A stretch of DNA of 22,232 bases from a virus (IMGVR_UViG_2703718827_000007), one strand, 5' to 3'; counted from the stretch's first letter, positions 537-16,700 are shown. The notes: a model not told the origin generated them from the letters alone. Translations and numbers: made by a program.

Positions 537-553
537 ATGGTGCGATAATAGGA
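537..553. repeat. Distal att core copy (imperfect direct repeat of 16264-16281; lacks one C)
   Basis: 17 of 18 positions identical to the 3' acceptor/CCA end of the tRNA-Thr fragment at the other end of the element. Sits in the yagP-proximal intergenic region. Confidence 0.5.
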
Positions 554-615
554 ACAAAACAAACAATAAAAATACATTGATATATAAAGATATTTTCACG
601 TTACATCTTTGGAGA

Positions 616-635
616 TACCCCCAAAAGTACCCCCA
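616..635 (+). promoter_or_regulatory. Paired TACCCCCA motifs, putative integrase arm-type binding sites (distal arm)
   Basis: TACCCCCAAAAGTACCCCCA at 616-635. A near-identical pair TACCCCCATAAGTACCCCCA occurs at 16132-16151 next to int. Both pairs lie just inside the att repeats. Confidence 0.3.
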
Positions 636-895
636 AACAATTTTCTCTCACCACCATTTGCACATAAAGCAGCCATGTACAACTGGTAGTTGAACAGGCG
701 GGTAGACCGTTCGTTCAGTAAATACCTGATATTTCCGCCAACGAGAAATTGCGTTGGCTGGCAGAGTGCAAATTTGCACGATGACCTAACCCATTGATTC
801 TTTCGAAAACCTGCAATGCAGGAAGCCGGATAACACCATTTTTATAGCTCCGATCCCTTCAAAGTGAGGGGTAATTTGCCAAAACAGAGAGAGCA

Positions 896-1183
896 TTACT
901 GTCTCTGGCAATCTTTATCGCGATAACGCCTGAAGTACCCTCTCGCTTCCTCATCCATACCAAGAGCCGAATGAGTCCGCTTAACTGCCTGTCTTAAATC
1001 TCCGAATCTGTCTGTAGTTGCTGGTGGGCGTGCCGCCTTACGGATACATTCAGAGCGTCTGTTTGCTGCATGTTCACGTTCTTTATCGCCATCTGCCAGC
1101 ATCATGACTTCTGCCCATCGTGCGGCAGCTCTCCGGTATAGCCCTTTTGACTCCAGTTCTTCAGCTTTCCTGTCCCTTATCAT
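896..1183 (-). CDS. Small prophage regulatory protein, PerC-like (95 aa)
   Basis: ATG at 1183 preceded by GAGAGG; TATAAT-like -10 upstream. The N-terminus (MIRDRKAEELESKGLYRRAAARWAEVM) resembles the PerC-family proteins commonly annotated in P4-like prophages; this is recollection, not a search. Confidence 0.5.
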   Translation of the reverse strand: MIRDRKAEELESKGLYRRAAARWAEVMMLADGDKEREHAANRRSECIRKAARPPATTDRFGDLRQAVKRTHSALGMDEEARGYFRRYRDKDCQRQ

Positions 1184-1219
1184 TTCTGCCTCTCAGATTA
1201 TATAGATAAGCAAAAAGGT

Positions 1220-1340
1220 GTTGGTTCAGTTGGTTCAGTTGGTTCAATTTGTAAAGATCGTTGTTTTTATTGTGTTTTTTCTGAAATATTGAACCAACAT
1301 CAACTCATTTTGAACCAACACAGCCCAGCTCTGAACCAAC
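1220..1340. repeat. Iteron cluster 1: 3 tandem GTTGGTTCA (1220-1246) plus 3 inverted TGAACCAAC copies at 21-bp spacing (1290-1340)
   Basis: Directly visible 9-bp repeats in the divergent promoter region between the PerC-like gene and the RHH gene. Mirror image of cluster 2 at 7576-7686. Confidence 0.6.
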
Positions 1341-1393
1341 AACACAGCGATAGCTTTGTGATTGGTCCGTTATTTTCTGGCTGATATTTGAGC

Positions 1394-1425
1394 GTATAAC
1401 AGTGTTATACAGTGGTATACTGTAT
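1394..1425 (+). promoter_or_regulatory. Two adjacent inverted repeats (operator-like) upstream of the RHH gene
   Basis: ATAACAGTGTTAT (1394-1406) and ATACAGT-GGTAT-ACTGTAT (1407-1425), 18 bp upstream of the ATG at 1443. This is the typical position for an autoregulated RHH repressor operator. Confidence 0.35.
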
Positions 1426-1442
1426 GGATATTACTCACTGAT

Positions 1443-1898
1443 ATGGTCTTTGCAATGAGCAAATCTAATCTGGTCGCGTTCCGCATCCCATCTGAATTGC
1501 AGGATGAGTTTAATCGGTCTGTTCTCGCTTCTGGAGGGGATAAAACCTCCTGGCTTGTTGATGCGATTCGCATGAAGCTGGGACAGCCGGAAAAGTCTAT
1601 TGATTCACGAATGCTTGGGCTGGTGGAGCGCATGGAAAAAGCCGCTGCGTCGCTTATTGCCGGAAAGCCGAACATCCCACCAAAGCCATATAACGAAACG
1701 GCAGTTATAAAGATCATTGCCGATACCATCCGACAGGGATTTGATAATGGGCGCGTGATAGCTGAACGGATCAATGAAGCAGGCTATCAAACAAAAGCTG
1801 GTAAAGCGTGGGATAAAGATATTTACAGCGCGTGGAAGCGTCAGGGAAGCAATGCTGAAAAGTTAAAAGCGGTGATTGATTGTAAGGTCAGCGTATAA
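1443..1898 (+). CDS. Ribbon-helix-helix (Arc/CopG-like) domain protein, 151 aa
   Basis: N-terminal SNLVAFRIPSELQDEFNRSVL...WLVDAIRMKL fits the RHH beta-strand/helix pattern. The opposite-strand ORFs here translate to low-complexity sequence. Confidence 0.55.
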   Translation: MVFAMSKSNLVAFRIPSELQDEFNRSVLASGGDKTSWLVDAIRMKLGQPEKSIDSRMLGLVERMEKAAASLIAGKPNIPPKPYNETAVIKIIADTIRQGFDNGRVIAERINEAGYQTKAGKAWDKDIYSAWKRQGSNAEKLKAVIDCKVSV

Positions 1899-1977
1899 AC
1901 CTGAGTGCCCATTGGAAAACTGCTTGGGCCAATACCTTTATACACCAGCAGGTGGTGACGATGGGTGAGGATCAGGC

Positions 1978-2199
1978 ATGAAAGGCAGAACGCCACACAT
2001 TGAACATCAAGCCAACCACTTCTCGGATGTTCGCAATGAGATGATTGCCATTCGCGGTGATATGCACGGCTTGGAGCGTCGAATTATTGATAAGATTGAT
2101 GAAAATAGAGATAAGGCCAGTGAAAATCAAAAGTGGATCATCGGCCTGTTGATTTTATCAATGCTTATCCCGCTACTTATCGCATTGGTCACAAAATGA
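1978..2199 (+). CDS. Small tail-anchored membrane protein (coiled-coil N-terminus, C-terminal TM helix), hypothetical, 73 aa
   Basis: ATG at 1978 preceded by GGTGAGGA. C-terminal WIIGLLILSMLIPLLIALVTK is a single hydrophobic helix. Confidence 0.5.
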   Translation: MKGRTPHIEHQANHFSDVRNEMIAIRGDMHGLERRIIDKIDENRDKASENQKWIIGLLILSMLIPLLIALVTK

Positions 2200-2652
2200 A
2201 TATCCAATGTGTATGCTGTCGATGCTACGCGCGCGTACTTGTCGCAAAATATCAGACAAAAGCCAGATTCAGAACGTCGTGATAACCACCAGCACAACAG
2301 AGAGGTCATGTAACGCGATTTATCACACCAGATACATGTGATTGGTACACCCGCATAAAACATCGTCATAGCGCGTCCTGTGCGCATATACGCCGATAAT
2401 CAACACATCACCACCACTCTGTCTCGTGTAGAGAACAGTTTCATGGTATCCCCCGCCATCGTGTGCGTACTGGTCGGACGCAGTTGCAAAAAATTTTGCA
2501 ACTGATACCCCTCGCGCGCGTACTGGTCACGAAATTGGTGTTTTGCTGTGGCAGTGATATCAGAAAAATCTTGCTGTTTCACATAAAGCGGATATGCGCG
2601 TACTGTAACGGCCCCATCAACTGGGAGCGGATTTGAAATCCCGACCCAAGCT

Positions 2653-3072
2653 ATGTACCAAATGCCATGTCTTGGATATATGATGATTGCCATTCTAAAC
2701 AAAGCTAAAGGGAGGGTTGGTGTGAATGCTCAGGCTGTCATCATGGTTTTACTTGGTCTGATTGTCGCAAAACTATATCCAGACTGGTGGAAAGGGGCAT
2801 TAGCAACTGTCGCCATCTATTTGCTTTTATCCGTCGTTAAGCGATCGTTCGTTAAGACCGTAAATCAAGCAAAACGTTTCTCATTTAAGAATTTAATAAA
2901 CTATATTACTGGGCTTATTTTTTGCCTTTCAATTTTGATCGCTTCAGCTTTTTTGCCCGTATCAATAGCTAATTTTTTTGGCGCACCATATGAGGTAGGT
3001 TATCTATTCTCTGTTTTTTGTCTTGTTCTTTCCCTTCTTTACCTATGGATGAGAGCAAAGAACAAAAATTAG
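2653..3072 (+). CDS. Small polytopic inner-membrane protein, immunity-protein-like (maximal ORF; probable true start GTG 2722, about 117 aa)
   Basis: Three to four hydrophobic helices (AVIMVLLGLIVAKL, LATVAIYLLLSVV, ITGLIFCLSILIASAFL, LFSVFCLVLSLLYLW). GGAGGG lies 5 nt upstream of the in-frame GTG at 2722. The gene is AT-rich relative to its neighbours and converges on the 701-aa gene with only 18 bp between the stops. Confidence 0.6.
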   Translation: MYQMPCLGYMMIAILNKAKGRVGVNAQAVIMVLLGLIVAKLYPDWWKGALATVAIYLLLSVVKRSFVKTVNQAKRFSFKNLINYITGLIFCLSILIASAFLPVSIANFFGAPYEVGYLFSVFCLVLSLLYLWMRAKNKN

Positions 3073-3090
3073 CCATCCATGGCTAACCAG

Positions 3091-5196
3091 TTATTGAGAT
3101 TCTTTTTGTGATGCCTGTGCGACTCTGGTGAGCGATTGTGTGACCGTACTGATCGCTCTGTCATATGCTGTGCTACCTTTTGGCGTATTTGCCAGACGTA
3201 ACAAGGCATTTCGTATAACAGGGCTTTCGTATGCCTTCGCTGCTCCGCCTACGGCACCAGCAGCAGGAACAACAAACGCAGCCGTTTTTAGCATCCCCGC
3301 TAATACTGCTGCGTTTATGATGCCACCACCAACTAACAATCCATAAAGCTGCTGACCATTTAAGTTTTGAACGTTCGCTTTTGCCGCGTGTCTTGTATCG
3401 TTGAGGTATTTAATAACGCCGTCCAGTTCCTTTCCATGTACGCCTTTAAAGAAAGTTGCTGATTGCTTCCTGTTCCGGTGTAACGCATTAATAAACTTCT
3501 CAACACTGATATTTCCAGACGGATCAGTCGCCTTATCTACAGCATTCTGAACTATGGCTGCTCGTGCGTTTTGCCTACCATTGTCATCCAGAAGCCTGTA
3601 AAGCTGAGAACGTTCTGATGGGCTTTGGCTAAAAACGAGTTTTGTTACATCCTCAGGCGTGGCCTTGCCGCTGGCTATTGCCTTTTGAACGCGCGTTCTT
3701 CCCATCATGTCATTGAATTTAGACCATGAGCGATCAACCCTTGCCATATTAATGGCTTCGTCTGCTCCAAGATTTTTGGCTACGGCTTTTTTCATATCCG
3801 CCGTATATGCCTTGTAGATAATATCGCTGGCTTTCTGGAGCGTATCTTTATCAACAGTGTCAGATGACGCCATAAATCGCTTTCGAAGATCGGTTCTGTT
3901 TTCCCTCGCCAGACGCAGGTCATTTGGTCCGCTGGTGATATCGTCTTTAAATTGCTGCAAGACTTTTACCGCGGCTCTATCCTGAGATTTGCCCGGGCGG
4001 CTTAACACGGCAATCTGATTGTCGATAGCTTTTACCGTGTTTGAGAGATCGACAGGGGTATCCCCCATAGCGTCAATTATGCGGTTATATCGCTTTCCTG
4101 CTGCCTCAATGAATTTTTGTTGCCCTTTAGTCGCAGATTCATAAAGCTGTTTATCAGAAATGCCACCCAGACCATCGCTAAATGTTCTGACTAAATTTTC
4201 TCGTGCTTGTTGTTGATTCAGCCGATTCTTACCGGTTCCAAAAAAAGGAACTCTTTCGCCTAATGTCTGAGCCTGACTCTGCATAAAGGTTTTATCTTTC
4301 AGCATGTCACTGGTCATTAACGGCAGATTTCTTTCCGATGCAAAGTCGACAGCAGCCTTTGCTTCAGGCGACATATCACCACGAACAGCCCTCGAAACCG
4401 CACTCGCTGTATTTTCCAGCCCCTTACCAATACCACCAATGCCAGCAGAAATTACCGTTTGTAACGGATCAATATCTTCTCCACCAGCAAGGCTGGTGGC
4501 TCCCTGTAGTGCTAAATCTGTAGCTGCTGATTTTCCTATGGCACCAAGCACCGTTCCAGCCCTGCCCGCTGGTGTAAACGCCAACGCATTAGCAAGAAAC
4601 GAGGTCAGGTCTTGCGGTGATAAACCCGGCTTGTTCAGGGCATAATCACCTGATGGCAGAGAAACGATAGTATTCCCCTTCTCATCCTGCCTTAATGTCG
4701 CCCCCATTCCCTGAAGAATCTTTTCCTGAGACGCGTCAGAGCCGAAAAGTTGAGACCATCCAGCCTTTAGGGCATCCATGCTTAGTGAGTTCAATTCTGG
4801 GGCAGAGGCGACATTTTGCAGTCTCTCCATCTCTGGAGTCATTCGGCTTTCGCCTGTTATAGCATCGCGCATCGCAGCCCCAAGACTGGCTCCCTGTTCT
4901 GCTGAACGCTCAAGCCCCTCTCTTTGCTGAGTAGCTAACTTTGCATACCCTGACGCAAGAGAATTATCAGATGATGTATGTTGAATATTTTGAGTTGCTG
5001 ATTGGGATCGGTCTATTTCATTCGTTGATGGTAGTGGATAGGCAGCATAAAAAGCCTGCTTAGCCTGCTCTACACTTTCTCCGGCTTGCGGGGCCACGAC
5101 TTCATTGAAGTATTGCTCCTGAGCCTGCGCTTTTTGTTCTGGTGCTAACGCCTGATACTGTGGAGAGGCGATAACATCTTTCCATGCTTTAGCCAT
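3091..5196 (-). CDS. Hypothetical 701-aa protein: Ala/Gln/Gly-rich, predicted helical, with a C-terminal glycine-zipper hydrophobic hairpin
   Basis: Long ORF. ATG at 5196 is preceded by GGGGTGA and overlaps the upstream stop (TAATG). C-terminal LYGLLVGGGIINAAVLAGMLKTAAFVVPAAGAVGGAAKAY is a roughly 40-aa hydrophobic hairpin. No nucleotide-binding or catalytic motif recognised. Confidence 0.85.
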   Translation of the reverse strand: MAKAWKDVIASPQYQALAPEQKAQAQEQYFNEVVAPQAGESVEQAKQAFYAAYPLPSTNEIDRSQSATQNIQHTSSDNSLASGYAKLATQQREGLERSAEQGASLGAAMRDAITGESRMTPEMERLQNVASAPELNSLSMDALKAGWSQLFGSDASQEKILQGMGATLRQDEKGNTIVSLPSGDYALNKPGLSPQDLTSFLANALAFTPAGRAGTVLGAIGKSAATDLALQGATSLAGGEDIDPLQTVISAGIGGIGKGLENTASAVSRAVRGDMSPEAKAAVDFASERNLPLMTSDMLKDKTFMQSQAQTLGERVPFFGTGKNRLNQQQARENLVRTFSDGLGGISDKQLYESATKGQQKFIEAAGKRYNRIIDAMGDTPVDLSNTVKAIDNQIAVLSRPGKSQDRAAVKVLQQFKDDITSGPNDLRLARENRTDLRKRFMASSDTVDKDTLQKASDIIYKAYTADMKKAVAKNLGADEAINMARVDRSWSKFNDMMGRTRVQKAIASGKATPEDVTKLVFSQSPSERSQLYRLLDDNGRQNARAAIVQNAVDKATDPSGNISVEKFINALHRNRKQSATFFKGVHGKELDGVIKYLNDTRHAAKANVQNLNGQQLYGLLVGGGIINAAVLAGMLKTAAFVVPAAGAVGGAAKAYESPVIRNALLRLANTPKGSTAYDRAISTVTQSLTRVAQASQKESQ

Positions 5197-6662
5197 TAAT
5201 CACCCCATAGTGAAGAAAAGTTACTGCTGGCTGCTGGCTGTGATACCTGCTCAGATTGCGGCAATGTCTGCGACGAAGAAGCAGTTCCTCTGTCAACTGC
5301 TGAAATAACCCGCAAAGCATCATAAGTTCGACCAGAAGCAGCTTTCAGCGAATTGAACTGGTTTTCCATCTTCCGGCGCTTGGTATCAATGGTTTTTGTG
5401 GAATCACCAGGCTGAGGGAAATACATTTGATAATATTTGGACATTTCAGCTGGTAGGATAGATGCCCCTGTTTCCTGACGGAGTATTGCCATTATTGCGT
5501 CATTAGCATTAACAACGTATTGCTGCTCTGCTGGGCTGAGCGTTAAGTTAGCCAGCGTCCCATTACCCAAAGCATTATTAATGATCGCCACTCGCTGTGG
5601 GCTAAGCTGGTCTTTCAGTGTATCTATTGAATCAAGAGCATCCCTAACCCTGTATGCAAATCCAGCAGCTTTTTTAGCCCCTTCTGGCGACTTTTCCATG
5701 ATCTTTTGGGCTGTTGGCAAAGCTATTGGACGAAACCCATCTCCAGATATTGGCTGGTTTAGTTTTCCCTGCTCTTCACTTCCGTCTGTGTAGTATTTTG
5801 TGACAGTGCCATCATCGTTTTCTCTAACACTCATTAATTTTTTGGCGTTTGTATTAATTCCAGCCGCTGCCGCAAATGCCGCCGCCCCCTCTGGATCCGC
5901 CTTTAACATTTGCGCGTACTGATTGTAATTCTGCATTGCTGCTGTTGGTGCATATGCTGACGTTAACGCATTTGCTCGGCTAATATCCTGCCCTCTCGCC
6001 TGAAGTGCTTCGCCAGCCTGATTGCTGCGGATTGTCTCTGCCAACTTGCCACGCTCAATATCCCGACCTTCCATTTGATCTTTGATATCGAAATACTTCT
6101 CATGACCGAGAGAAAACAGCGCCAGATTACCTGCGAAATGCTGGAAGCCCTGCGGGTCATTAACCTGCATTTCAGCAATAGTTTCTGGAGGGATACCTAA
6201 ACGACGCATCTCCTGCTCATTATCCATCATGAACCTGCCAAATGCGCCCTGACCAAGCGATGAGGCTACCTGTGCTTTGAGCGCCAGATTGCCATAATCA
6301 TCCCTTTGAGCATCATCGACATAACTCATCCCTTTACGGACTTCCTCAAACTCTTCTGGGAATGCTGTAATAAGATTACGCATCTGCTCCCTGTCACCGG
6401 ACGCATAAGCATCTGCATAACCTTTCTGGAATGCCGCTTTACGCTCCTGCTGTTGCTGCTGCTTATAAATATCAGCAACGCCAGCCAGACCACGAAGACC
6501 TGTCAGAGCAACGTTATTTGCACCTGAGCGAGCCAGTTCATTGTTTTCGCGGATCAGACCAAGCGTTGCGTTAATGTCGCTTGCCTTTGGCGCATTCTCA
6601 TTTTGCGTACCGATGCCAGCCAGAAAACCACCAGAATTAATACCCTGTTGCCACGTAGCCAT
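5196..6662 (-). CDS. Hypothetical 488-aa protein: Gln/Ala-rich, predicted helical or coiled-coil (ORF track extends to a GTG at 6674)
   Basis: ATG at 6662 (MATWQQ...) lies 4 nt after the stop of the 57-aa ORF. Stop overlaps the start of the 701-aa gene, indicating translational coupling. No enzymatic motif recognised. Confidence 0.85.
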   Translation of the reverse strand: MATWQQGINSGGFLAGIGTQNENAPKASDINATLGLIRENNELARSGANNVALTGLRGLAGVADIYKQQQQQERKAAFQKGYADAYASGDREQMRNLITAFPEEFEEVRKGMSYVDDAQRDDYGNLALKAQVASSLGQGAFGRFMMDNEQEMRRLGIPPETIAEMQVNDPQGFQHFAGNLALFSLGHEKYFDIKDQMEGRDIERGKLAETIRSNQAGEALQARGQDISRANALTSAYAPTAAMQNYNQYAQMLKADPEGAAAFAAAAGINTNAKKLMSVRENDDGTVTKYYTDGSEEQGKLNQPISGDGFRPIALPTAQKIMEKSPEGAKKAAGFAYRVRDALDSIDTLKDQLSPQRVAIINNALGNGTLANLTLSPAEQQYVVNANDAIMAILRQETGASILPAEMSKYYQMYFPQPGDSTKTIDTKRRKMENQFNSLKAASGRTYDALRVISAVDRGTASSSQTLPQSEQVSQPAASSNFSSLWGD

Positions 6663-6666
6663 TGAT

Positions 6667-6840
6667 TTACCCACGTCCAGTTAAAGTGTAAGCCAGCGCC
6701 TTATCCATTAATCCCCGAGCAATTTCGTGGATCGTTGGCGCAACTCCTACCTCTGATTTTTTACGCTGCTCCTCCTGAATTTTCTTTATCGCTTCCATTT
6801 GCTTCTCACTTATCAATACTGGCTTTACTGAAATAGCCAT
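6667..6840 (-). CDS. Small 57-aa protein, first gene of the SOS-box operon (possible small DNA-binding or chaperone-like protein)
   Basis: ATG at 6840 preceded by AGGGGG. Translation MAISVKPVLISEKQMEAIKKIQEEQRKKSEVGVAPTIHEIARGLMDKALAYTLTGRG. Below the 60-aa cutoff of the ORF track, so found by manual translation. Confidence 0.45.
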   Translation of the reverse strand: MAISVKPVLISEKQMEAIKKIQEEQRKKSEVGVAPTIHEIARGLMDKALAYTLTGRG

Positions 6841-6854
6841 AACGCCCCCTTAGA

Positions 6855-6872: not shown

Positions 6873-6935
6873 CATTATAGTTTCATAAAACGCAACATTC
6901 ATAATTGTGATTGCAAAATATGAAACAAATAGCAC

Positions 6936-7575: not shown

Positions 7576-7686
7576 GTTGGTTCAAAATGCCGTGTTGTTG
7601 GTTCAGTGTTGGTTCAATAAAAAGAATAAAATCCTTATAAAACAATACTCTTTACAAATTGAACCAACTGAACCAACTGAACCAAC
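7576..7686. repeat. Iteron cluster 2: 3 GTTGGTTCA copies (7576, 7597, 7608) plus 3 tandem TGAACCAAC (7660-7686)
   Basis: Same 9-mer as cluster 1 in mirrored arrangement, immediately 3' of the primase-helicase stop at 7712. Analogous to the ori/crr repeats bound by P4 alpha protein, but with a different repeat unit. Confidence 0.6.
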
Positions 7687-7711: not shown

Positions 7712-10468
7712 TCATTCTTCAGATGAGTTGTAATCTCCTGGCTGGTAATTGAGTACATAAACGTTTATTTGTCGTCCCTGAATACGTGGTGATTTTCTTT
7801 GGTATCCACGACCGCTGTTTGGTGGGGTTAGCATCCCGGCTTTTTTCAACACTTCAGCAAACTGTTTTGCGTTGAAACCACATGCGATCTCCTTTTCAAA
7901 TGTGGCCGGGAATGTGTAGAAAATCATTGGGCTTTCGTCATGTTCTCCACGCTGACGGTATCCGGCTAAATCTTTGATGGGCAAATCTGCCGGGCTGTAT
8001 GGAAATGGTGCAAAACGGCTAAGCCCATAGGCATTAAGAAATGCCTCCGTTTGTTCAATAATCTGCTGATGCTCTTTGTTACCTGTGCCGAACTCGCGCA
8101 ACCATGCGTTATAGCTGTGCTGTATCGCATCACGGCATGTCTGAGCATCCCAGCCTGTTACAACCTCGCCTAACAACAATGCGGCCTCCAGAATGGCAAA
8201 TCGCGCGGCTACACGGTGAACCTGCTCACCATAATCGGATGGGATCAGGCTTCTCCATCTGCTTTCGCAGTCACGAACAGTTTTAATAGCCTGTTGCTGG
8301 TGGTCTGCCAGCCATTTAATCCACTCACGCCCGGACGCGCCGTGGTGATGCTGGTAAGCGTCTTTCAGTGCGTCTGCGTGCTGTTTTCCGTTCTGGTAAT
8401 CGTGAAAGCGTACTGCTTTACTCAACGGAATATTCAGCAGTCGCACCAGTTGCCCGGCTTTGGTTTTTCGCCCGGAAGTAGCGATAAATGTTTCTAAATC
8501 CATTTCTCCGGTGCTGATTGCCACTGTACGCCAGCGTTTTAGATCCCGGTTTCCACCATCTTTAGCGCCTTGCAGTTTCCCTACACCGTTAAATAACGCA
8601 TAGGCAGACTGTGAAACACTGACAGGATCAGCGCCCTGACCAACTTCATCAAGCGGCATTAGTCCGTCATTGTGGGCGGCGGCTTCATTTGCCAGCCCCA
8701 GCGCGGTTCCGTACCACGTCAGCCGCAGTAAATCAGGGTTGCCGTATAAGCTGCTCGCCACGTTTGCCGTGGTGGTCTTACCTGCGCTCGACTGCTCATA
8801 GAAATGAATGCCGAACCCGTCAGCGCCCACCAGCCCAATCAATGGCGCTGCCAGTGCTGCGCCGATCCCGGTCATCATTGAATAGTTACCAAAGGCCAGA
8901 CGCGCCACGTTATCACGCCAGCTTTTCGCGCTCCCTGAGACGGTATATCCGGCTGCGGCTGAGCTTCTCCCGCTGAACAGCACAGGATTTTCAGGTGTTC
9001 CGATGATTTCCCCATCAGGCATGATGTACGCTCCGCATTGCCAGCCAGTGGCATGAGCAACACGCCACAATTCACGAGAGCCACTGCGTTGTAGCCAGTC
9101 TGCCAGTATTGCTCTGAGGCTGCTTTTGGTCGTGACATTTACCCCACCAGCTTTAAGTGTGCGCCATCCTTCACGTTCACCAATATCAGCCAGTGGAATG
9201 GCAGCGGTTGTCGGCGTTTCAGAACCAAACGACAGCCAGCGAAGAATGAGATACTGGTCTTTATCGTCTCTGCCAGTACCGATAACGCTTAACGGAGAAC
9301 ATAACCAGCTTTCGTTATTGATGATTTCTCCACTCTGGCTGTCAGCTCTCGGAGATACCCAATAAATACCATCCTCGCGGCTTTCTATTCTTGGTTTCAG
9401 TGGGTCGGTATCCATAACCTTAAAATCGCTTCCCTCAATGGTCTGTGGCTCCTGTTTCACGCCATTACCCTGTGGTTGGTACATTGACTTATTGAACGCT
9501 TCTGTGGCGCATTTAATGCCGTGTTTTTGGTGGTAATCATTCCAGTCTGCTTTGTGATCTGTCGGGGGTAATGCCACCCATCCAGAAACAGATAAAGCTG
9601 CCTTTTCTGCTGCTATTCTCCCCGTGTTTTGTCTTCCTTCGCTGTGGTCGTTATCCGCAGCAATGATGATTTGTGCTGAAGGAAATTTATCCCGCAGTAC
9701 CTGGGCGACATATAACAGGTTCCCGGCATCAATCGCCGCCACTGTCAGCGCCTCTGGACGAATTAAATGGGCAGATAATGCCGTTGCCAGCCCTTCTGCG
9801 ATTAAGATGCTCTGTGTTGTTTCTGGTGCGTTTATGGCGTGATATGCCCCCCGCTTTGCTGAACCTGTCAGGAGTCTTTTTTCACCATGTGAGGTAATAG
9901 TCTGTGCTGCTGTTACTGCGCCGGATTTATCCACCAGCGCCAGCAACAGAGATCCATCGGGCAACACGGGGAATGTAAAATCACCTACCCCTTTCGCAAC
10001 CAGATAATCAGATTTGCCGTTTACAGCCTTTCTGCGCATGTCATCAAACTGACGGGAAAACGTATCCCGTCTTTGCTGTTCGTCCTTCTCTGCCCTTTTC
10101 AGGCGCTCCTGTTCGCGTCGCTGGCGCTCGGTTTCCAGTTGTTCCCGTTTCTGGCTGGTGGCTTCTGGTGTTTCCGTTGTCCGGTAATCAATACCCAGAA
10201 CATCAGCGGCAAGAAGCGCCGCCTCTGTTGTGTCGCAGTTATTTACGCGTTTAATTAAATCCAGCCCATCACCAGCGCCGCACTGATTACAGATGAAGCT
10301 ACCGCGCCCGTTGTCATCGAACCGGAATCGATCTTTGCCCCCACATGCAGGGCAGGGAGCATGACGGCGCGGAGAGTCAGGGACATTTATGTTCAGGCAG
10401 CCCAGCACATGAGGCCAGTTGTTTTCAGACGCACTGATAACCTGACGGATAAGATCAATGTTTCGCAT
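7712..10468 (-). CDS. P4 alpha-like DNA primase-helicase (zinc ribbon + TOPRIM primase + P-loop helicase + C-terminal DNA-binding region), 918 aa
   Basis: N-terminal zinc ribbon CPACGG...FICNQCG; TOPRIM-like motifs (EGLATALS, IIIAADNDHSEG); Walker A-like SSAGKTT. ATG at 10468 preceded by a GGGGG stretch. Confidence 0.9.
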   Translation of the reverse strand: MRNIDLIRQVISASENNWPHVLGCLNINVPDSPRRHAPCPACGGKDRFRFDDNGRGSFICNQCGAGDGLDLIKRVNNCDTTEAALLAADVLGIDYRTTETPEATSQKREQLETERQRREQERLKRAEKDEQQRRDTFSRQFDDMRRKAVNGKSDYLVAKGVGDFTFPVLPDGSLLLALVDKSGAVTAAQTITSHGEKRLLTGSAKRGAYHAINAPETTQSILIAEGLATALSAHLIRPEALTVAAIDAGNLLYVAQVLRDKFPSAQIIIAADNDHSEGRQNTGRIAAEKAALSVSGWVALPPTDHKADWNDYHQKHGIKCATEAFNKSMYQPQGNGVKQEPQTIEGSDFKVMDTDPLKPRIESREDGIYWVSPRADSQSGEIINNESWLCSPLSVIGTGRDDKDQYLILRWLSFGSETPTTAAIPLADIGEREGWRTLKAGGVNVTTKSSLRAILADWLQRSGSRELWRVAHATGWQCGAYIMPDGEIIGTPENPVLFSGRSSAAAGYTVSGSAKSWRDNVARLAFGNYSMMTGIGAALAAPLIGLVGADGFGIHFYEQSSAGKTTTANVASSLYGNPDLLRLTWYGTALGLANEAAAHNDGLMPLDEVGQGADPVSVSQSAYALFNGVGKLQGAKDGGNRDLKRWRTVAISTGEMDLETFIATSGRKTKAGQLVRLLNIPLSKAVRFHDYQNGKQHADALKDAYQHHHGASGREWIKWLADHQQQAIKTVRDCESRWRSLIPSDYGEQVHRVAARFAILEAALLLGEVVTGWDAQTCRDAIQHSYNAWLREFGTGNKEHQQIIEQTEAFLNAYGLSRFAPFPYSPADLPIKDLAGYRQRGEHDESPMIFYTFPATFEKEIACGFNAKQFAEVLKKAGMLTPPNSGRGYQRKSPRIQGRQINVYVLNYQPGDYNSSEE

Positions 10469-10480
10469 TCTGGCCCCCGT

Positions 10481-11083
10481 TTAGTGCGTCACTGGTGCTT
10501 CTGGGATGCCGTTTTCGTTTAGTTCGGCAATAAAGCTGTTGTGAAGATCGGCAAGCACTTCTCGCCCAAACGAAGTGAGTGTTCCCTGTTCGACATCGAA
10601 CATGTTGCTGTAAAAAATGATGGCATTCTTTGTTCCGACATCAACACCATATTTCTCGATCATTGCGCCCTCAATGTTGTTTGCCATAGCGAGGCGCTCT
10701 GCTACTGGATACAGCGGCATGGCGACGATGCCATTGGAATAAACAGAAACCACGGAATGATTGCCACTGTCATCAATAATGCTGACGGTGCCGTTTTCCT
10801 TTCTCATTTCATTGATGAATGCTGTTGCTATCAGCCAGCGCCACATAATCACGTGATGCTGTGATGTGTAATCGAAATATCCCTGGTTGCCGCCACTGGC
10901 AATAGCGAGATGTATAAACATGCCTTCATCTGGTTTATCGTCATAATCCCCGGCATCCAGACGATTTACGGCATCAATATATGAGACGGTCTCAACGCGT
11001 TCTGTCATGCCATCGTTGCTGCGGTGCATGATGTTTACGCCGTCAGGCGTTGCTTCTGCATGGAAGGTTAAGAAATTATTCAT
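10481..11083 (-). CDS. Hypothetical protein, 200 aa
   Basis: ATG at 11083 overlaps the stop of the upstream ORF (ATGAATAA). Located immediately upstream of the primase-helicase in the same operon. Confidence 0.6.
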   Translation of the reverse strand: MNNFLTFHAEATPDGVNIMHRSNDGMTERVETVSYIDAVNRLDAGDYDDKPDEGMFIHLAIASGGNQGYFDYTSQHHVIMWRWLIATAFINEMRKENGTVSIIDDSGNHSVVSVYSNGIVAMPLYPVAERLAMANNIEGAMIEKYGVDVGTKNAIIFYSNMFDVEQGTLTSFGREVLADLHNSFIAELNENGIPEAPVTH

Positions 11084-11297
11084 GTTTCGCCTCGCCTGAA
11101 TGATTCTGTAACTCATATTTGCCCAACAATTCGTCTGCTTCCTGAATAGCTTCTGGTACGCCATTGAGCAGTGACATAACCGCGCCAATCATTAACTTGT
11201 CTCTGTTGCTGGGGCTGGCCCCTTCAAGCCAGAACCCTAAAACAGTCTGAACCTGTTCGATGCGACATTGCGCTTCAATGAGCTGGATGTTGGTCAT
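11076..11297 (-). CDS. Hypothetical small protein, 73 aa
   Basis: ATG at 11297 overlaps the upstream stop (ATGA), indicating translational coupling. Confidence 0.55.
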   Translation of the reverse strand: MTNIQLIEAQCRIEQVQTVLGFWLEGASPSNRDKLMIGAVMSLLNGVPEAIQEADELLGKYELQNHSGEAKHE

Positions 11298-11557
11298 TTC
11301 GCACTCTCCACATCGATTAAACTGATATCTATCAGGGAGGTAACTTTTTGTAGCCAGCTATTGATTACTGTCGCCTGTTCCCCTCCCACCGAGGGAATAA
11401 TCTCATTCATCACATGAACCAGACCTGTGCGCGCTCTGGTAAGCCGTTCAGTCGCGCAATCTGCGGGAGTGAATGTGTCTGGATATGGCTCTTCGCGCCC
11501 CAGCAATGATTCAATTTCCAGCTCACACGGATGACGATAAATTAAGTTGATATTCAT
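11294..11557 (-). CDS. Hypothetical small protein, 87 aa
   Basis: ATG at 11557 overlaps the upstream stop (ATGA). Confidence 0.55.
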   Translation of the reverse strand: MNINLIYRHPCELEIESLLGREEPYPDTFTPADCATERLTRARTGLVHVMNEIIPSVGGEQATVINSWLQKVTSLIDISLIDVESAK

Positions 11558-11748
11558 TTTTCACCCCCAAGAATTACCAGCTCGGCACGGGCATCGTTAA
11601 CCAAAGATGAGCACGCTTTAATCGCATCCACGACATCAGCAGCGTCCATTTCTTCAGCCGAAAGACTGACAGCAACCAGGACAGCCGCTGCTTGCTCGAT
11701 TAATTGAAGTGCGGACGTAAGGCGAGGGGTATTAATTGAGTTATTCAT
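11554..11748 (-). CDS. Hypothetical small protein, 64 aa (ORF track lists the longer 11554-11805 version)
   Basis: ATG at 11748 ([10 protein letters not shown]...) overlaps the stop of the upstream frame (ATGAATAA) and follows a G-rich stretch. Confidence 0.5.
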   Translation of the reverse strand: MNNSINTPRLTSALQLIEQAAAVLVAVSLSAEEMDAADVVDAIKACSSLVNDARAELVILGGEK

Positions 11749-12808
11749 TGGTTGCCCCCGTTTTGCATGGCATTTGTCCACCTTCCAGCAGGAAATGAAC
11801 GTCACGAACGGCGAGATCCAATATCGCGAGTAACGCCTTCAGTTTTTCGTCTCGTGAGGGAGAGTTGCTCACCAGAATGTCATTAATCACTTCTGTCAGT
11901 GTGATGATCTGGCTTGTGCGTTCGAGGGGATCCATATGCACATCGTAGGTTTTAATCATGTGCCACCTCCATGCGGATACGACCAGCAAAAAAGCAGACG
12001 TGATCGCGCACCAGAGAACGGCGAGCATCGCGTTCAGACTCGGCAGCAATATGATGAATTTTGGCGGTAATTGTCGGGCAATCGCGGCGAACTGCGGCGA
12101 TAATCCAGATAAATTGCGGTTTTTGGGTAGGGGTAGTAGCCAGCATGTGGCAGCCTCCATTCGATAGCATGTAACGCTACCACCGGAAACGCCAATTTCG
12201 CTGGTGGTAGCCCAGACAGGGTTGGCGTAACCGGCTCGAATGGATACCGGCGCTTCCGAAGAAGCCCCTGCCTGAGCCACCATTGATTGACAAAGGCGCT
12301 GGATTATACACCAACGCCCAAAAAATGGGTGAGTCAGACCTACGACATAAAAAAAGACGCTCGGCGCGTCATATGTCGCCATTCGATTTACCAGGACGCC
12401 AATCCCGGCACCCGTTTTATGAGGTGCCTTATAACCATAAACCGTGTTGCCGCATAACGGCAAGCTCTTTTTTATGGACTCCGAAAACTCACTATTGGAA
12501 GAACCAGAAGCACAGTACATCGCGCTCATTTCGTTAACGTCACGCGCGTGGACGAAGGTTTTTGTGGAGTCACTACGCGAGCAGAGAAAGCCATCTACGA
12601 CCAGAAATTCTCTGGCGCAGCCGCTGACCTTCTCAACGCTAACACCATCGACCGTAATTTCTGACATAGTTAAGGCATCCGCTCCTACCACCAGCAAATG
12701 ATAAACTTTGCTTGTATCTGCTGTATTAATGCCTGACTTTGCTGTCATATTGCTGGATTTTGGCGACATACCAGCCAGTGAAAATGTCTTCTTCTGGGCG
12801 GTTAGCAT
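11741..12808 (-). CDS. Hypothetical protein; 355-codon open frame with ambiguous internal organisation
   Basis: ATG at 12808 overlaps the stop of the 60-aa gene (ATGCTAA). The N-terminal two-thirds looks protein-like; the middle (about 11960-12170) is Leu/Pro-rich and looks out of frame. A strong internal start (GGAGGTGGCAC-ATG at 11958) would give a 72-aa product, and an alternative-frame ORF at 11952-12170 has its own GGAGG-ATG. Possibly a frameshifted gene or two to three genes. Confidence 0.4.
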
Positions 12809-12984
12809 TTGTTAACCTCCGCGAACTCCTTCATGAAACGTGCCAGCGGTTGTACGCATGGCGATTGATACCCGTCGCGATAAAACGTCACTCGGTTGTG
12901 AGACACGCTTTCGACAGTAACGAGTGCTCCGTGGGCATCTTTGTAGCGTTTTTGAGGTTGTGGTGTTCCTGTCGGCTTAAACAT
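12802..12984 (-). CDS. Hypothetical small protein, 60 aa
   Basis: ATG at 12984 preceded by GGAGG, 3 nt after the stop of the 277-aa gene. The ORF track extends it to 13071, overlapping the upstream gene. Confidence 0.45.
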   Translation of the reverse strand: MFKPTGTPQPQKRYKDAHGALVTVESVSHNRVTFYRDGYQSPCVQPLARFMKEFAEVNKC

Positions 12985-13810
12985 GGACCGCCTCCAGACG
13001 CTTAGCGAGCCAGCGTTGCGACAGGCGGGTGAGTTCTCCTTTGCGCTGCTCATATTCCATGCCCATATCAATTAACGTGATATTGGTGCTTTCGAGATAT
13101 GAGAGGTGCTCAAGCTGTTCTGCGTTCATATGGTCGCGAGGTTCGCCAGAATAGCCATTTATCCGCGCCCACTGCTTAGCAGTTAGCCCACCAAGAACGA
13201 TACGAGAAATCATATTGCTCTCGTTTGTGTAGTGGTGTTGCTGCGTCGTTTTCCCCATCTCGGCACGGGCCATATTCAGCGCATCGCACATTGGCTTAAA
13301 GTTGTTTGCGGCACTGATACGGGCTTTTAGCTGGCGACGATAGCGGGCGGCGATTTCAGGCACGCTACGCTGTAATTCTTCCTCGCACTGGATGAAATAA
13401 CGGCGGATAGCGCGCCCCTGATCATTGCGTTCGATCATTGCCAGTTCTTTCGCCATTCCGACACTTAACAGATAGTCTTTGCCGGGTCTTCCAGACTGCT
13501 TAATCTTGCTGTAAGCCGCGCCATTCGGGATTTTCCCCAAATTTGGGGAAATAGTTTTATGGACTGAGTAATCGTGCCCAATGGTGAAGTCATATTCAGA
13601 GATGCGATCAGTGATCCATGTAGAGAAGTCTTTTCCCACGCCCAACGCTTTGTGTAACGCTTTTGCGCTAACAATATTGGTTTCACGCCCACCGATATGA
13701 CCAGGAATAACCGGGACAATTGCGGCAAATTCATTACCGTTAATTGTGCCCAGAGAGGCGTTCAGATGAGGGGCAGCCTCAGAAATTAATCTGCTTTTTT
13801 CGATGTTCAT
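12977..13810 (-). CDS. Prophage protein, 277 aa, possibly antirepressor/KilA-C-like
   Basis: ATG at 13810 preceded by GGAG. Segments (NIVSAKALHKALGVGKDFSTWITDRI, GRPGKDYLLSVGMAKELAM, RRYFIQCEEEL) are reminiscent of phage antirepressor-type domains; recollection only. Confidence 0.6.
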   Translation of the reverse strand: MNIEKSRLISEAAPHLNASLGTINGNEFAAIVPVIPGHIGGRETNIVSAKALHKALGVGKDFSTWITDRISEYDFTIGHDYSVHKTISPNLGKIPNGAAYSKIKQSGRPGKDYLLSVGMAKELAMIERNDQGRAIRRYFIQCEEELQRSVPEIAARYRRQLKARISAANNFKPMCDALNMARAEMGKTTQQHHYTNESNMISRIVLGGLTAKQWARINGYSGEPRDHMNAEQLEHLSYLESTNITLIDMGMEYEQRKGELTRLSQRWLAKRLEAVHV

Positions 13811-13822
13811 TTTCAGTCTCCG

Positions 13823-14254
13823 TTAGGCGGCGTTAAACGCGTCCGGGTAGAGTTTCAGAATGTCGGCAATTTCCTGCTGAGAAAGTCCGTTGTGATCATT
13901 TATGTTCGCAAGATGGTTAATATGAGTGATCACTTTCAGAACATCACCACGGCAGGAGAAACGGTAGCGAAGGTGTGTTCCGATACCATCAGGATTCTTT
14001 TCGTCGATACGCTCCAGAGTGATTCCGAGCTGGCGTTCTAACTCTGTTGCATAGTTACGACCAGAAGACAGACGGCAGTAGCGAAGAATGTCATTTTCTG
14101 TCCATCCCTCTATACCAGTACGCAGCATATAGACTCGGGCACGATGCTTTTTCGGCGTGCGCTTTGGTGCTTGAAGGGATTTTGTCAGGGGCGTAACATC
14201 AGATACGCGAATATCTGAATTAGCCGCCTGTAATGGGCGGTTTTTCTTTTCCAT
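13823..14254 (-). CDS. Hypothetical prophage protein, 143 aa
   Basis: ATG at 14254 shares its A with the alpA stop (TGATG). No family recognised. Confidence 0.6.
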   Translation of the reverse strand: MEKKNRPLQAANSDIRVSDVTPLTKSLQAPKRTPKKHRARVYMLRTGIEGWTENDILRYCRLSSGRNYATELERQLGITLERIDEKNPDGIGTHLRYRFSCRGDVLKVITHINHLANINDHNGLSQQEIADILKLYPDAFNAA

Positions 14255-14457
14255 CAGGCCACCTCGTCTCTAGATTCTAATATACACTTCTCAATCCATT
14301 CATCTATTTCAGACTCAACAAAAGCAATTGCCCGACTTCCAATTTTTACCTGTTTAGGGAACCTCCCCTGACTAATAAGACGATAAATCCATGCTTTGCT
14401 ATAACCAGTTCGCCTTTGAACTTCAGAGAGACGAATTAATGAATTGTAATTAGCCAT
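14254..14457 (-). CDS. alpA: AlpA-family phage transcriptional regulator (excisionase-like winged HTH), 67 aa
   Basis: MANYNSLIRLSEVQRRTGYSKAWIYRLISQGRFPKQVKIGSRAIAFVESEIDEWIE is a classic AlpA/Xis-type HTH. First gene of the operon downstream of int. Confidence 0.8.
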   Translation of the reverse strand: MANYNSLIRLSEVQRRTGYSKAWIYRLISQGRFPKQVKIGSRAIAFVESEIDEWIEKCILESRDEVA

Positions 14458-14543
14458 TTATTAATATCCTGTACTAATGACGCAATAACCCCCTCCTGCA
14501 ACGAATGGCGAGAGTTTTATTTGCGTCAAATGTCGAATACGCC

Positions 14544-14578
14544 AAAGACCACAATATGAAAAACATATTGCGGTCTTT
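14544..14578. promoter_or_regulatory. 15-bp inverted repeat (operator or RNA hairpin) in the int-alpA intergenic region
   Basis: AAAGACCACAATATG-aaaaa-CATATTGCGGTCTTT, 14/15 complementary, about 90 nt upstream of the alpA start. Not followed by a T-run on the minus strand, so more likely an operator than a terminator. Confidence 0.3.
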
Positions 14579-14884
14579 TATAAAAGATAGTCAGATTGTT
14601 TTGGTTTGTTTGCTCCACAAGGGTAGAGCTACCCTGCATTTCGGCAGGATCACGCTATTAGGCGTGACATCCAGTAGTTTTAAAGAACAATTGCGCTTTG
14701 TCAGCGCCAAAGCCTGTTAAAGAACATTCCGCTTTTCAGCAGCGTAGAAGGCTCAATACACCTTCGTTTATAAAAGAGCGATTGCCCTTCTCCAGGGCTA
14801 ACTGTTAAATAGCAATCCTCTGTGAGTTTTTATCAATCTACTCCCCTATACTTTAGTAAACCTCTGTATACTTGTCCAGTTGTT

Positions 14885-16099
14885 TCATGCGTGTTTTTCA
14901 AACACCATATGCACCACATTTCCGCCATGCTCGAGAGAATCCATATAGTCGGCATACCATTGAAGCATCTCCCGCCGTCCATCCAGATATTGCGCATGGT
15001 TGTATGTGCCACGAATTGAGTTCTTATCAACGTGAGCGAGCTGCGTTTCTATCCACGCGGTGTTATAGCCCTGCTCATGCAAAATCGTGCTCATAGTGTG
15101 TCGGAACCCATGACCAGTTACACGTCCAGCGTAGCCAATGCGCTTAAACACTTGGTTTATGCTGGCCTCACTCATTGTTTTCCTTGGATCATTGCGCCCG
15201 GGAAACATAAGAGGGTAATTGCCTGTTATTTCTCTAATCTTCCCAATAAGCGAAAGAGCCTGCTCAGACAATGGCACAATATGAGGCCGCCGCATTTTCA
15301 TACGTGAAGCGGGTATCTCCCATATAGCCTTGTTGAAATCAATTTCATCCCATAATGCGCCACGTAGTTCGCCAGTTCGCAAGCCGGTGATAATCAGTAG
15401 GCGAGCCGCCATAACAACCAATGCGCTTCCTGAGTAACTGGATAATGCCTTGAAAAAATCAGGTAATTCTTTGGTCGTAAGGAAAGGGTAATGATTAGAT
15501 TCATGGCCTTGCATCGCGCTAGTAAGGTCTGGTGCAGGGTTATACTCTGCGCGACCAGTGACTATTGCATAGCGGAAAACTTCCCCGCACCGCTGCCTCA
15601 CTTTTTTGGCTTTTTCTGTCGCACCGCGCCCCTCGATGCGCCGCAGCACATTCAGAAGTTCAAGTGGTTTGATTTCGGCGATTGGTTTTTTGCCAATGTA
15701 AGGGAACACATCTTTGTTGAAGGCTTCGAGGATGTCTGAAGCATAACCAGCAGACCATTTTTTTAATTTGCTGCTGTGCCACTCAAGGGCAATATCTTTG
15801 AAGGTGTTGTTTAACTGCGTTTCCCGGGCAATCTTTTCCTCTCGTTTCGCTTCCATCGGATCGATACCACCAGCGATACCTCTTTTCGCATCTTCACGTT
15901 TTGCCCGAGCATCGGCTAGAGTAACCTCAGGATACACACCTAGTGCCAATAGCTTCTCTTTACCAGCTACACGATATTTAAGTCGCCAGTATTTACCTCC
16001 ATTAGGTTTTACCAAGAGATACAAACCGCCACCATCGGCCAGCTTGTAAGCCTTCTCTTTTGGCTTGGCTGTGTCTATTTGACGGGCATTGAGTTTCAC
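14885..16099 (-). CDS. int: P4-type tyrosine integrase (site-specific recombinase), 404 aa
   Basis: N-terminal arm-binding-type region (KLADGGGLYLLVKPNGGKYWRLKYR) and C-terminal catalytic region with the conserved HGFRHT and terminal Tyr context. GTG start at 16099 preceded by GGAGGT. Adjacent to the tRNA-Thr 3' fragment. Confidence 0.9.
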   Translation of the reverse strand: MKLNARQIDTAKPKEKAYKLADGGGLYLLVKPNGGKYWRLKYRVAGKEKLLALGVYPEVTLADARAKREDAKRGIAGGIDPMEAKREEKIARETQLNNTFKDIALEWHSSKLKKWSAGYASDILEAFNKDVFPYIGKKPIAEIKPLELLNVLRRIEGRGATEKAKKVRQRCGEVFRYAIVTGRAEYNPAPDLTSAMQGHESNHYPFLTTKELPDFFKALSSYSGSALVVMAARLLIITGLRTGELRGALWDEIDFNKAIWEIPASRMKMRRPHIVPLSEQALSLIGKIREITGNYPLMFPGRNDPRKTMSEASINQVFKRIGYAGRVTGHGFRHTMSTILHEQGYNTAWIETQLAHVDKNSIRGTYNHAQYLDGRREMLQWYADYMDSLEHGGNVVHMVFEKHA

Positions 16100-16101
16100 T
16101 T

Positions 16102-16247
16102 GGGGGTACCTCCACTAAACCGAACAGCAAATACCCCCATAAGTACCCCCATCTGACCGTAGATTTTGAGGGACTTTAGTAGACGTCAAAAGACGAACGG
16201 GGCTTTAATACGTGGATTATAAGGGGTTTTGAAAGACTTTAGTAGAC
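16102..16247. promoter_or_regulatory. Integrase arm-type repeat region: GGGGGTA (16102-16108), TACCCCCA x2 (16132-16151), GACTTTAGTAGAC x2 (16172-16184, 16235-16247)
   Basis: Direct and inverted short repeats between the int start and the att core. The TACCCCCA pair is duplicated at the distal end (616-635). Confidence 0.35.
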
Positions 16248-16264
16248 TTGGGGAGATGTTTGAA

Positions 16265-16310
16265 TGGTGCCGATAATAGGAGTCGAACCTACGACCTTCG
16301 CATTACGAAT
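16265..16310 (-). pseudogene. 3'-terminal 46 nt of a tRNA-Thr (thrW-like, anticodon CGT), prophage attachment-site remnant
   Basis: The minus strand reads ATTCGTAATGCGAAGGTCGTAGGTTCGACTCCTATTATCGGCACCA: anticodon loop TTCGTAA, T-stem GTAGG/CCTAT, T-loop TTCGACT, acceptor strand plus CCA. No matching 5' acceptor (GCCGATA) or D-arm upstream, so the tRNA is truncated at position 31. Identity to thrW is from memory. Confidence 0.7.
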
Positions 16311-16700
16311 TATAAGAATCCGCTTCTAATTCAAAGCATTACCCCATCAACACTGCGCTCACACGTCCCACCACATCAAAACATGTAAAGCCTTGCAAGC
16401 CATTGTGAGGCCTTATGTGTCTCAGTTTTGTCCCACCTTGTATTACGACTTGCATAGCCAATGAAGATCAACGTGACGACAAACGGCGCAGCAGTCTTCT
16501 TTTCCTTCATACTTTCCCTTCCCCTTCCCCACCATGCATACTTTTCTGCCATAACTAAAGTGAATGCCTGTTATAAGCAATAAACAGGCATTAGCGCCGC
16601 TAGCATATTAGCTACCATTCGACTGCCACACTTAAGATTGATTTCTTAAGTATAACCCGGTTTCTAATACCACTTATATATTCAGCTCTGAGATTCATTT

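Follow-up and report, generated by a model that had tools for sequence, protein, structure and literature searches.

The threonine tRNA gene thrW of Escherichia coli is a recognised integration hotspot (PMC7545054), and the closest described counterpart of the locus presented here is the tandem lysogeny of phages SfX and SfI that was produced experimentally at this gene (PMC3306764). The core of SfI, printed as ATTCGTAATGCGAAGGTCGTAGGTTCGACTCCTATTATCGGCACCA, is common to SfII, SfV, SfX and P22 (PMC3636060). Satellites adjoining prophages are also common enough for SatelliteFinder to post-process its output for them (PMC10085698). In this work, we analysed the viral sequence IMGVR_UViG_2703718827_000007, a stretch of 22,232 nucleotides (the window) from the thrW locus (tRNA-Thr CGU), and compared it with 5,426 complete E. 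coli genomes. We consider it very likely that two independent integrative elements are stacked at the 3' end of thrW, one being a 15.7-kb P4-related, satellite-like element (the island) and the other a prophage of the SfV/SfI family, whose cargo end lies at the right of the window.

The locus resembles the SfX and SfI tandem in the tRNA gene used, in the 46-nucleotide core, in an attP arm of about 97% identity, in having integrase and cargo at opposite ends of the prophage and in the displaced att copy between the two elements. It differs in its downstream partner, which is an island with a P4-type integrase and a shorter, nested core of 17 nucleotides, and the cargo slot that in the Sf phages holds gtrABC is here taken by the anti-phage gene Avs2. 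Tandem integration at tRNA genes, the thrW hotspot, the 46-bp core of SfV and P22 and the carriage of defence genes by prophages are all established; the architecture is ordinary and follows in textbook fashion from the nesting of tRNA att sites at a known hotspot. It is useful mainly for annotation, as it explains the truncated tRNA, fixes the borders of the elements and assigns Avs2 and pin to a phage and not to a chromosomal defence island.

Structure of the thrW locus and its states in related genomes

ARAGORN found no tRNA gene anywhere in the window. Positions 16265-16310 (minus strand) are an exact copy of the last 46 nucleotides of thrW; the 5' half is missing, and the adjoining 30 nucleotides do not match it. 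The initial annotation, made from the sequence alone, had described such a fragment at the integrase-proximal junction, together with a direct repeat of 17-18 bp bounding the element, and both descriptions hold. The repeat copies are AATGGTGC-GATAATAGGA (536-553) and AATGGTGCCGATAATAGGA (16263-16281), the left one corresponding, at 538-553, to the 3' 17 nucleotides of thrW minus one C, and it was this indel of one nucleotide that made an automated repeat search miss the pair. Taken alone, the repeat would not be statistically remarkable. That it is a genuine att pair follows from the genome comparison, because matches in many E. coli genomes end exactly at 16310 or begin exactly at 536, and because the empty site joins both flanks. 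Such a site, with which a comparison had been suggested, is found in ATCC 8739 (H121), where the LysR fragment of the host flank is joined directly to thrW with a 100% match. The host flank is the chromosomal side distal to thrW, contiguous with it in this empty site, and our query, a synthetic join of host flank and full thrW, is 100% identical to ATCC 8739 over the annotated tRNA-Thr.

Relatives carry the elements both singly and together. In FMU073332 (L003), proB-proA are followed by an intact tRNA-Thr, the integrase, the island, a 17-nucleotide copy, the LysR fragment and paoD. Its island is 99.6% identical to window positions 1-16310 over about 70% of the window, with an Abi gene and the insertion sequence IS1 replacing part of the distal region. 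A near-identical island (99.6%) adjoins intact thrW with no prophage in several strains, the arrangement that the initial annotation had expected of a single integration. The tandem state is represented by GF8 (L002/L004), in which proA is followed by an intact tRNA-Thr, a different tyrosine integrase, a complete prophage, variable cargo, the 46-nucleotide relic and the same island. The GF8 prophage encodes an HNH/P27-type terminase, an HK97-type head, a Mu-like contractile tail, tail fibres and pinE. The second element that had been postulated at this att site can be seen here, between the intact thrW and the relic. The array comprises three co-oriented att copies, two of them in the window and the third, in intact thrW, in GF8; the island alone (FMU073332), the phage alone (Z0117EC0040, L007, and pCE-O153H30-A, L008) and the empty site (ATCC 8739) are all found in relatives.

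The exact tandem junction (island arm, 46 nucleotides, phage arm) occurs in 148 of the 5,426 genomes, and the island arm adjoins intact thrW in 707. The attR remnants fall into classes of 17 nucleotides (query positions 1-255), 46 nucleotides (1-284) and about 49-52 nucleotides (1-287/290), and in many genomes an SfV-type attR of the 1-284 class stands directly on the host flank. The existence of several attR lengths indicates that several element types with nested cores use thrW.

A more complex layout was observed in Z0117EC0040 (5513-5560 and 45693-45806), where the integrase-proximal att is followed by about 49 nucleotides of thrW and another integrase/conjugation-type element, with no thrW 5' half; the annotation calls this region a 'tRNA-Ser' of 112 nucleotides. 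The distal 46-nucleotide copy of the same prophage adjoins a third element with an integrase of 645 amino acids. This layout indicates that arrays of at least three elements occur at thrW.

Some points weigh against a simple two-element array in the source genome. Its intact thrW and phage integrase lie outside the window, its array is read from relatives, and none of the genomes in the collection has both halves at >97% identity. The Z0117EC0040 prophage is preceded by a further element and not by an intact tRNA, and the array of the source genome could likewise exceed two elements. The crossover positions discussed below are those that the sequence suggests. Moreover, the contig with a circular-type junction carries a variant island and not the exact island of the window, and the island attP junction gave 0 matches in metagenomes.

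The right-hand element and its Avs2 cargo

Window positions 16255-16436 have an identity of about 97% with the attP regions of SfI, SfII, SfIV and SfV and of about 83% with P22-like phages, and the 46-nucleotide fragment is identical to the published attP core of SfI, SfII, SfV, SfX and P22. In the SfI record (JX509734), the annotated 46-bp core is flanked by int-xis at one end and, at the other, by gtrA-gtrB-gtrI and then the tail-fibre genes; the window diverges from SfI beyond about 16436, and its GC content drops sharply near 16.5 kb. Z0117EC0040 has a complete 40-kb prophage whose end matches the right-hand 5.9 kb of the window with 100% identity, and in the circular replicon pCE-O153H30-A (44.8 kb) the integrase, an att remnant, Avs2, pinE and the tail fibres are contiguous on one phage genome. 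The cargo order Avs2, pinE, tail fibres is found in both (5951-11482 in the former, 38886-44753 in the latter). Complete phages with an integrase are present in Z0117EC0040 and in GF8, in the latter with the integrase beside intact thrW.

Based on the Sf-like attP arm and on this contiguity, the AT-rich region with the STAND and invertase genes is identified as the cargo end of a temperate phage of the SfV/SfI family. The initial annotation had taken it for a second island; a second element is indeed present, but it is the end of a complete phage, known both as a circular replicon and as a prophage. The two genes had been named correctly, the STAND gene being Avs2 according to PADLOC and NCBIfam (NF041813, cutoff 1000 bits) and the invertase a serine recombinase of the Pin/Hin type according to Pfam.

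Avs2 occupies the slot between the attP core and the pin and tail-fibre genes, where Shigella phages carry gtrA-gtrB-gtr(type). The Avs2 and pin segment is present at a coverage of at least 80% in 87 of the 5,426 genomes, and GF8 has a different cargo in the same slot, an AraC regulator and a transposase fragment. As in the defence hotspots of P2 and P4 (PMC9122126), an anti-phage system is found as exchangeable cargo of low GC content beside the attachment site of a temperate phage, whereas the carrier is here an SfV/e14-type phage and the slot is one known for the O-antigen-modifying gtr genes. The presence of Avs2 in the gtr slot of SfV-type phages suggests that defence and surface-modification cargo compete for one locus. 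No description of Avs2 in gtr-type moron slots was found in the literature searched.

Three minor observations concern this end of the phage. Relative to window positions 16263-16420, pCE-O153H30-A (38882-38925) has a deletion of 132 bp that takes away the att core's anticodon-side half together with the arm next to it; this may explain why the replicon persists unintegrated. It was accordingly rejected as a clean attP example and still shows the contiguity of int, Avs2 and pin. Downstream of Avs2 (16512-16530) there is an array of the hexamer CTTCCC, a length-variable microsatellite with three copies in the window and in Z0117EC0040 and six in pCE-O153H30-A. Part of the Sf attP arm (16353-16434) also matches K-12 MG1655 at about 3.295 Mb (96%) and many genomes away from thrW, and may be a dispersed prophage-end remnant.

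Mobility of the island and position of the crossover

A circular junction of the island across positions 553 and 16264 would read GATGTTTGAATGGTGCCGATAATAGGAACAAAAC. The circular-type junction sought at these positions was found in a relative, the IMG/VR contig L011 (21.4 kb), which contains a permuted island in the order alpA, primase, gp20/gp16, distal arm, core and int, with no chromosomal flanks and no internal duplication. The core at its junction (9684-9714) is intact and reads …TGGTGCCGATAATAGGA…. In contrast, one C is missing from every chromosomal distal copy inspected (254-nucleotide spans for the 255-nucleotide query). The idea that the deletion is a feature of attP was rejected, as the attP-type junction of L011 has the intact core. 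An intact core in L011 and a deletion in all chromosomal distal copies imply that the deletion travels with the host-flank side, which would place the crossover to its right, within GATAATAGGA.

The stretch with the deletion would then be the displaced end of the host tRNA, now functionless, and the distal junction of the island appears to be old and inherited rather than repeatedly re-created. In a genome with a single integration, precise excision would pass the deletion to thrW, while in a tandem array only the 46-nucleotide relic would be altered.

Order of arrival and alternative explanations

The phage integrase would use the 46-bp core, which starts in the anticodon loop, and the P4-type integrase of the island would use only the last 17 nucleotides, nested inside that site. 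In the direction of the tRNA, the array would run from intact thrW (outside the window) through the SfV/SfI prophage, the 46-nucleotide relic, the island and the 17-nucleotide relic to the LysR fragment and paoD, and the last 5.9 kb of the prophage would provide the pin invertase, the Avs2 cargo and the attP arm seen in the window. If the phage came first, its attR would keep 46 nucleotides next to the host flank and offer the island a full target; an island that came first would rebuild thrW and in turn offer a full target to the phage. Thus, with a 17-nucleotide site nested in the 46-nucleotide one, either order of arrival gives an identical map, with the phage between thrW and the island. 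The two elements cannot stand the other way round if the phage crossover is located at the anticodon-loop end of the core, as is usual, because the anticodon-loop region is absent from the 17-nucleotide relic of the island. The element with the longer core must sit closer to the tRNA, and att-core length, not time of arrival, sets the sequence of elements in such arrays.

The evidence tilts modestly to the island as the earlier resident, and we give slightly better than an even chance to a history in which an SfV-type phage later entered the thrW regenerated by the island, displacing the island and the 46-nucleotide relic downstream. In the experimental tandem, the incoming SfI entered on the attL (tRNA) side of the resident SfX (PMC3306764). 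Prophage-free islands with 99.6% identity stand beside intact thrW in several strains, and the island arm on intact thrW is more frequent than the tandem (707 versus 148 genomes). In addition, all inspected island attR copies share the deletion of one nucleotide while the attP-type core is intact, which suggests an old, inherited junction; however, homologous recombination could also have carried the deletion along with the flank, or it could have recurred, and the base-by-base inspection covers a handful of junctions. The opposite history, with an older prophage and a P4-type element that entered its distal 46-nucleotide att copy, has perhaps one chance in three. The relic with the host flank holds the full 17-nucleotide core and its downstream context and would be a competent target, and in the many genomes of the 1-284 class the host flank begins immediately beside an SfV-type attR. 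Nevertheless, the map does not distinguish this history from the former, the shared attR deletion would have to arise independently after each integration, and there are prophage-only attR copies without it (H128, 100% identity). The view that the second element is the older one was therefore not sustained: the same map results from either order, and the shared deletion, the SfI precedent and the prophage-free islands favour an earlier island.

Two explanations other than independent stacking were also considered. The prophage end and the island could move as one unit through the outermost att copies, and as the 17-nucleotide core is present in all three copies, recombination between the outer ones is formally conceivable. 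We regard this as very improbable: the copy in intact thrW is flanked by the phage arm and not by the arm-type repeats of the island, each element occurs alone, and the permuted contig holds the island only. Even less credit is given to a truncation of thrW by a deletion, an inversion or an insertion sequence, with the Avs2 region being an unrelated defence island without any att logic. In its favour, a DNA invertase is located nearby and the GC content falls sharply at about 16.5 kb, but the break is found exactly at the boundary of the 46-nucleotide SfI/P22 core and is followed by 125 nucleotides of Sf-phage attP arm, the invertase is the tail-fibre pin gene of a phage, and there is no insertion sequence or inverted-repeat scar. 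This explanation was rejected on the coincidence of the break with the SfI core boundary, and stacking of two independent elements is retained.

Gene content of the island

The features of the window are listed in Table 1. The integrase of the island aligns with P4 Int from end to end (407 amino acids) at 42.5% identity, and arm-type repeats ATACCCCCAnAAGTACCCCCA are found on both sides of the island core; the attP of P4 has analogous ones. The similarity of the primase to the P4 alpha protein (34% identity) is confined to amino acids 5-339, the Zn-ribbon/Toprim part, the C-terminal half being DUF927. The 9-mer GTTGGTTCA occurs in 12 exact copies in the window, compared with 0.17 expected, arranged in two mirror-symmetric clusters. 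In the immunity region, both C4 (79.5 bits) and isrK (67.1 bits) score above the Rfam gathering score, and the region is similar to P4 positions 8347-8645 at the nucleotide and peptide levels. The AlpA-family gene gave no BLAST match to P4 orf88.

Table 1. Coordinates of the features identified in the window.
Feature	Position	Strand	Evidence
Host flank: paoD 3' end (1-22), LysR-family pseudogene fragment (73-411)	1..411	+	Annotation of relatives; Pfam LysR_substrate
Distal att copy (attR) of the P4-integrase element, AATGGTGC-GATAATAGGA	536..553	.	One C deleted; same deletion in L001, L002, L003
Arm-type repeat pair ATACCCCCAAAAGTACCCCCA, distal arm of island attP	615..635	+	Same pair at 16131-16151 on the other arm
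PerC-family regulator gene	896..1183	-	PHROG/NCBIfam; annotation in relatives
Iteron cluster 1, GTTGGTTCA, 3 direct + 3 inverted, ori-like	1220..1340	.	
P22 gp16-like DNA-ejection (E) protein gene, 701 aa	3091..5196	-	PHROG 770 DNA transfer protein E 2.5e-163
P22 gp20-like DNA-ejection protein gene, 492 aa	5196..6674	-	Pfam Inj_translocase E 1.6e-83
Iteron cluster 2, GTTGGTTCA, 3 direct + 3 inverted, crr-like, directly downstream of the primase gene	7576..7686	.	
Primase/replicase gene, Zn-ribbon + Toprim + DUF927, 918 aa	7712..10468	-	Pfam; PHROG 1139
P4-type RNA immunity region: C4 antisense RNA (12200-12287), isrK-like RNA (12350-12427)	12200..12427	-	Rfam
AntA/AntB-type antirepressor-like gene	12977..13810	-	Pfam AntA; PHROG
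AlpA-family regulator/excisionase gene	14254..14457	-	Pfam Phage_AlpA E 7e-20
P4-type tyrosine integrase gene, 404 aa	14885..16099	-	Pfam Arm-DNA-bind_3 + Phage_int_M + Phage_integrase
Int-side att arm: GTACCCCCA-type repeats (16101-16151), two 21-nt repeats TTTTGARRGACTTTAGTAGAC (16164-16247)	16101..16247	.	
Int-proximal att copy (attL core) of the P4-integrase element, inside the 46-nt relic	16263..16281	.	Joined to distal arm in L011
46-nt thrW 3' fragment, att core (attR) of SfV/SfI/P22-type prophage	16265..16310	-	Exact match; annotated in JX509734
Cargo-side arm of SfV-family attP (prophage end)	16311..16436	.	~97% to SfI/SfII/SfIV/SfV, ~83% to P22-like
Avs2 (AVAST type 2) anti-phage STAND NTPase gene	16701..21155	-	PADLOC 1751 bits; NCBIfam NF041813 equivalog 1692.8 bits
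Pin/Hin-type DNA invertase (serine recombinase) gene, tail-fibre switch	21678..22232	-	Pfam Resolvase + HTH_7; pinE beside tail fibres in relatives

An open reading frame (ORF) of 355 amino acids annotated as 'Ash family' (11741-12808) has its Pfam Ash domain (amino acids 124-232, approximately nucleotides 12113-12439) directly over the C4 and isrK RNA genes. Conserved RNA genes, read as protein, may account for this ORF and perhaps for its family, as with the historical 'cI' ORF of P4. PADLOC, applied to eight proteins including Avs2, matched only Avs2 and no known defence system among the seven from island ORFs. When the whole island was compared with a phage collection, only the gp20/gp16 patch gave matches, to P22-like phages, and no named phage or satellite record was recovered.

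Classification of the island

The initial annotation had assigned the island to the P4 family and had noted that it has no capsid genes and no sid, delta or psu homologues between the iteron clusters. These absences were confirmed within the searches made. With tblastn, sid, delta, psu, epsilon, gop and beta all gave E>0.09; for sid, delta and psu there was no match below E=0.69, nor any in Pfam, PHROG or NCBIfam, and the best match to epsilon (E=0.094) lies inside the gp16-like gene. The cos site of P2 and P4 has no match in the island with up to 4 mismatches allowed. Among the 25 largest or best-supported ORFs, which include every ORF annotated as a gene in relatives, Pfam, PHROG and NCBIfam revealed no terminase (small terminase/Rpp), capsid-morphogenesis or lysis family.

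P4-like satellites are defined by seven core components, of which at most two may be missing (PMC8628076). The island has three of the seven and is therefore outside this definition. The family assignment stands only for the backbone, that is the integrase, the N-terminal part of the primase, C4/isrK and the iterons. In common with P4 and P4-like satellites (PMC8628076, PMC10085698), the island has a P4-type integrase at a tRNA 3' end, arm-type repeats and an AlpA-family gene, and it shares with P4 the alpha N-terminal Zn-ribbon/Toprim in the primase, the C4/isrK immunity and bipartite iterons resembling ori and crr. Unlike P4, it is devoid of sid, delta, psu, epsilon and cos, has DUF927 in place of the alpha helicase region, carries P22-type gp20 and gp16 and integrates at thrW.

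Phage-inducible chromosomal islands (PICIs), as defined in SatelliteFinder, have five core components with at most one missing (PMC10085698). The island is without two of these and has at most three of the five, those present being int, the alpA-type regulator and the primase-replicase. It resembles the PICIs of Gram-negative bacteria in the order int, alpA, primase-replicase, in the co-orientation of its core genes from int to gp16, in a size of about 10-16 kb, in the absence of tail and lysis genes and in often adjoining prophages. It differs from them in its RNA immunity of the P4 type and in that no terS/Rpp or capsid-morphogenesis gene was found in it. The island may depend on a helper phage for induction, replication and packaging, to which the circularly permuted copy in IMG/VR points indirectly.

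Other elements share parts of this backbone. CP4-6 and the other cryptic 'CP4' prophages of K-12 with P4-type integrases occupy the same chromosomal site (from thrW to the pao region) and have an integrase of the same family. Their gene content is different, K-12 giving only a short match to the island, and the island differs from them in that its int, alpA, primase and iterons and its two att sites are still intact and in having a circularly permuted relative. The triple GTTGGTTCA iteron was found in 61 IMG/VR loci (L012-L071 among them), 33 of which have a TOPRIM/DUF927 primase with 60-100% identity, and none of the 61 has sid, delta, psu or P22 head genes. They suggest a wide family of replicons whose integrases and cargo vary.

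DNA-ejection genes of the island

The gp16-like protein has 30% identity to P22 gp16 over amino acids 151-592 and the gp20-like protein 55% identity to P22 gp20 over amino acids 1-239. In none of the five island copies examined is either gene disrupted, and dN/dS is 0.16-0.46 for the gp16-like and 0.20-0.32 for the gp20-like gene (0.16-0.32 for pairs differing appreciably), values that indicate purifying selection on the ejection genes. The P22 sieA, gp7, gp14, head, portal and terminase genes gave nothing against the window in tblastn. A small membrane ORF beside gp16 (2653-3072) was considered as a SieA homologue and discarded, as it has no tblastn match to P22 sieA. No description of satellites or PICIs with P22-type ejection proteins was found in the literature searched.

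The island belongs to a common, apparently uncharacterised satellite-like family with selectively maintained P22-type ejection genes. As a tentative extension, which we consider doubtful at present, it could represent an undescribed P4-related satellite family, found in about 5% of complete E. coli genomes, in which sid, delta and psu have been swapped for P22-type ejection genes and which parasitises podoviruses similar to P22, HK620 and Sf6. It has been reported that gp16 and gp20 determine sensitivity to SieA exclusion and that mismatched gp16 and gp20 assemble into virions, which are non-infectious (PMC10883804). Speculatively, the ejection proteins of the island could be loaded into hijacked virions, for instance bypassing SieA-type exclusion that acts on gp16/gp20, or the helper progeny could be poisoned by mismatched ejection proteins. 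If this were true, a satellite would here have a new means of exploiting or sabotaging its helper.

The ejection module adjoining the primase is present at a coverage of at least 80% in 298 of the 5,426 genomes. It is found at 15644-20302 in the GF8 locus L002 and at 786-5444 in contig L011, and the GF8 variant of the island additionally has gp7 and a gp14-family (DUF2824) gene.

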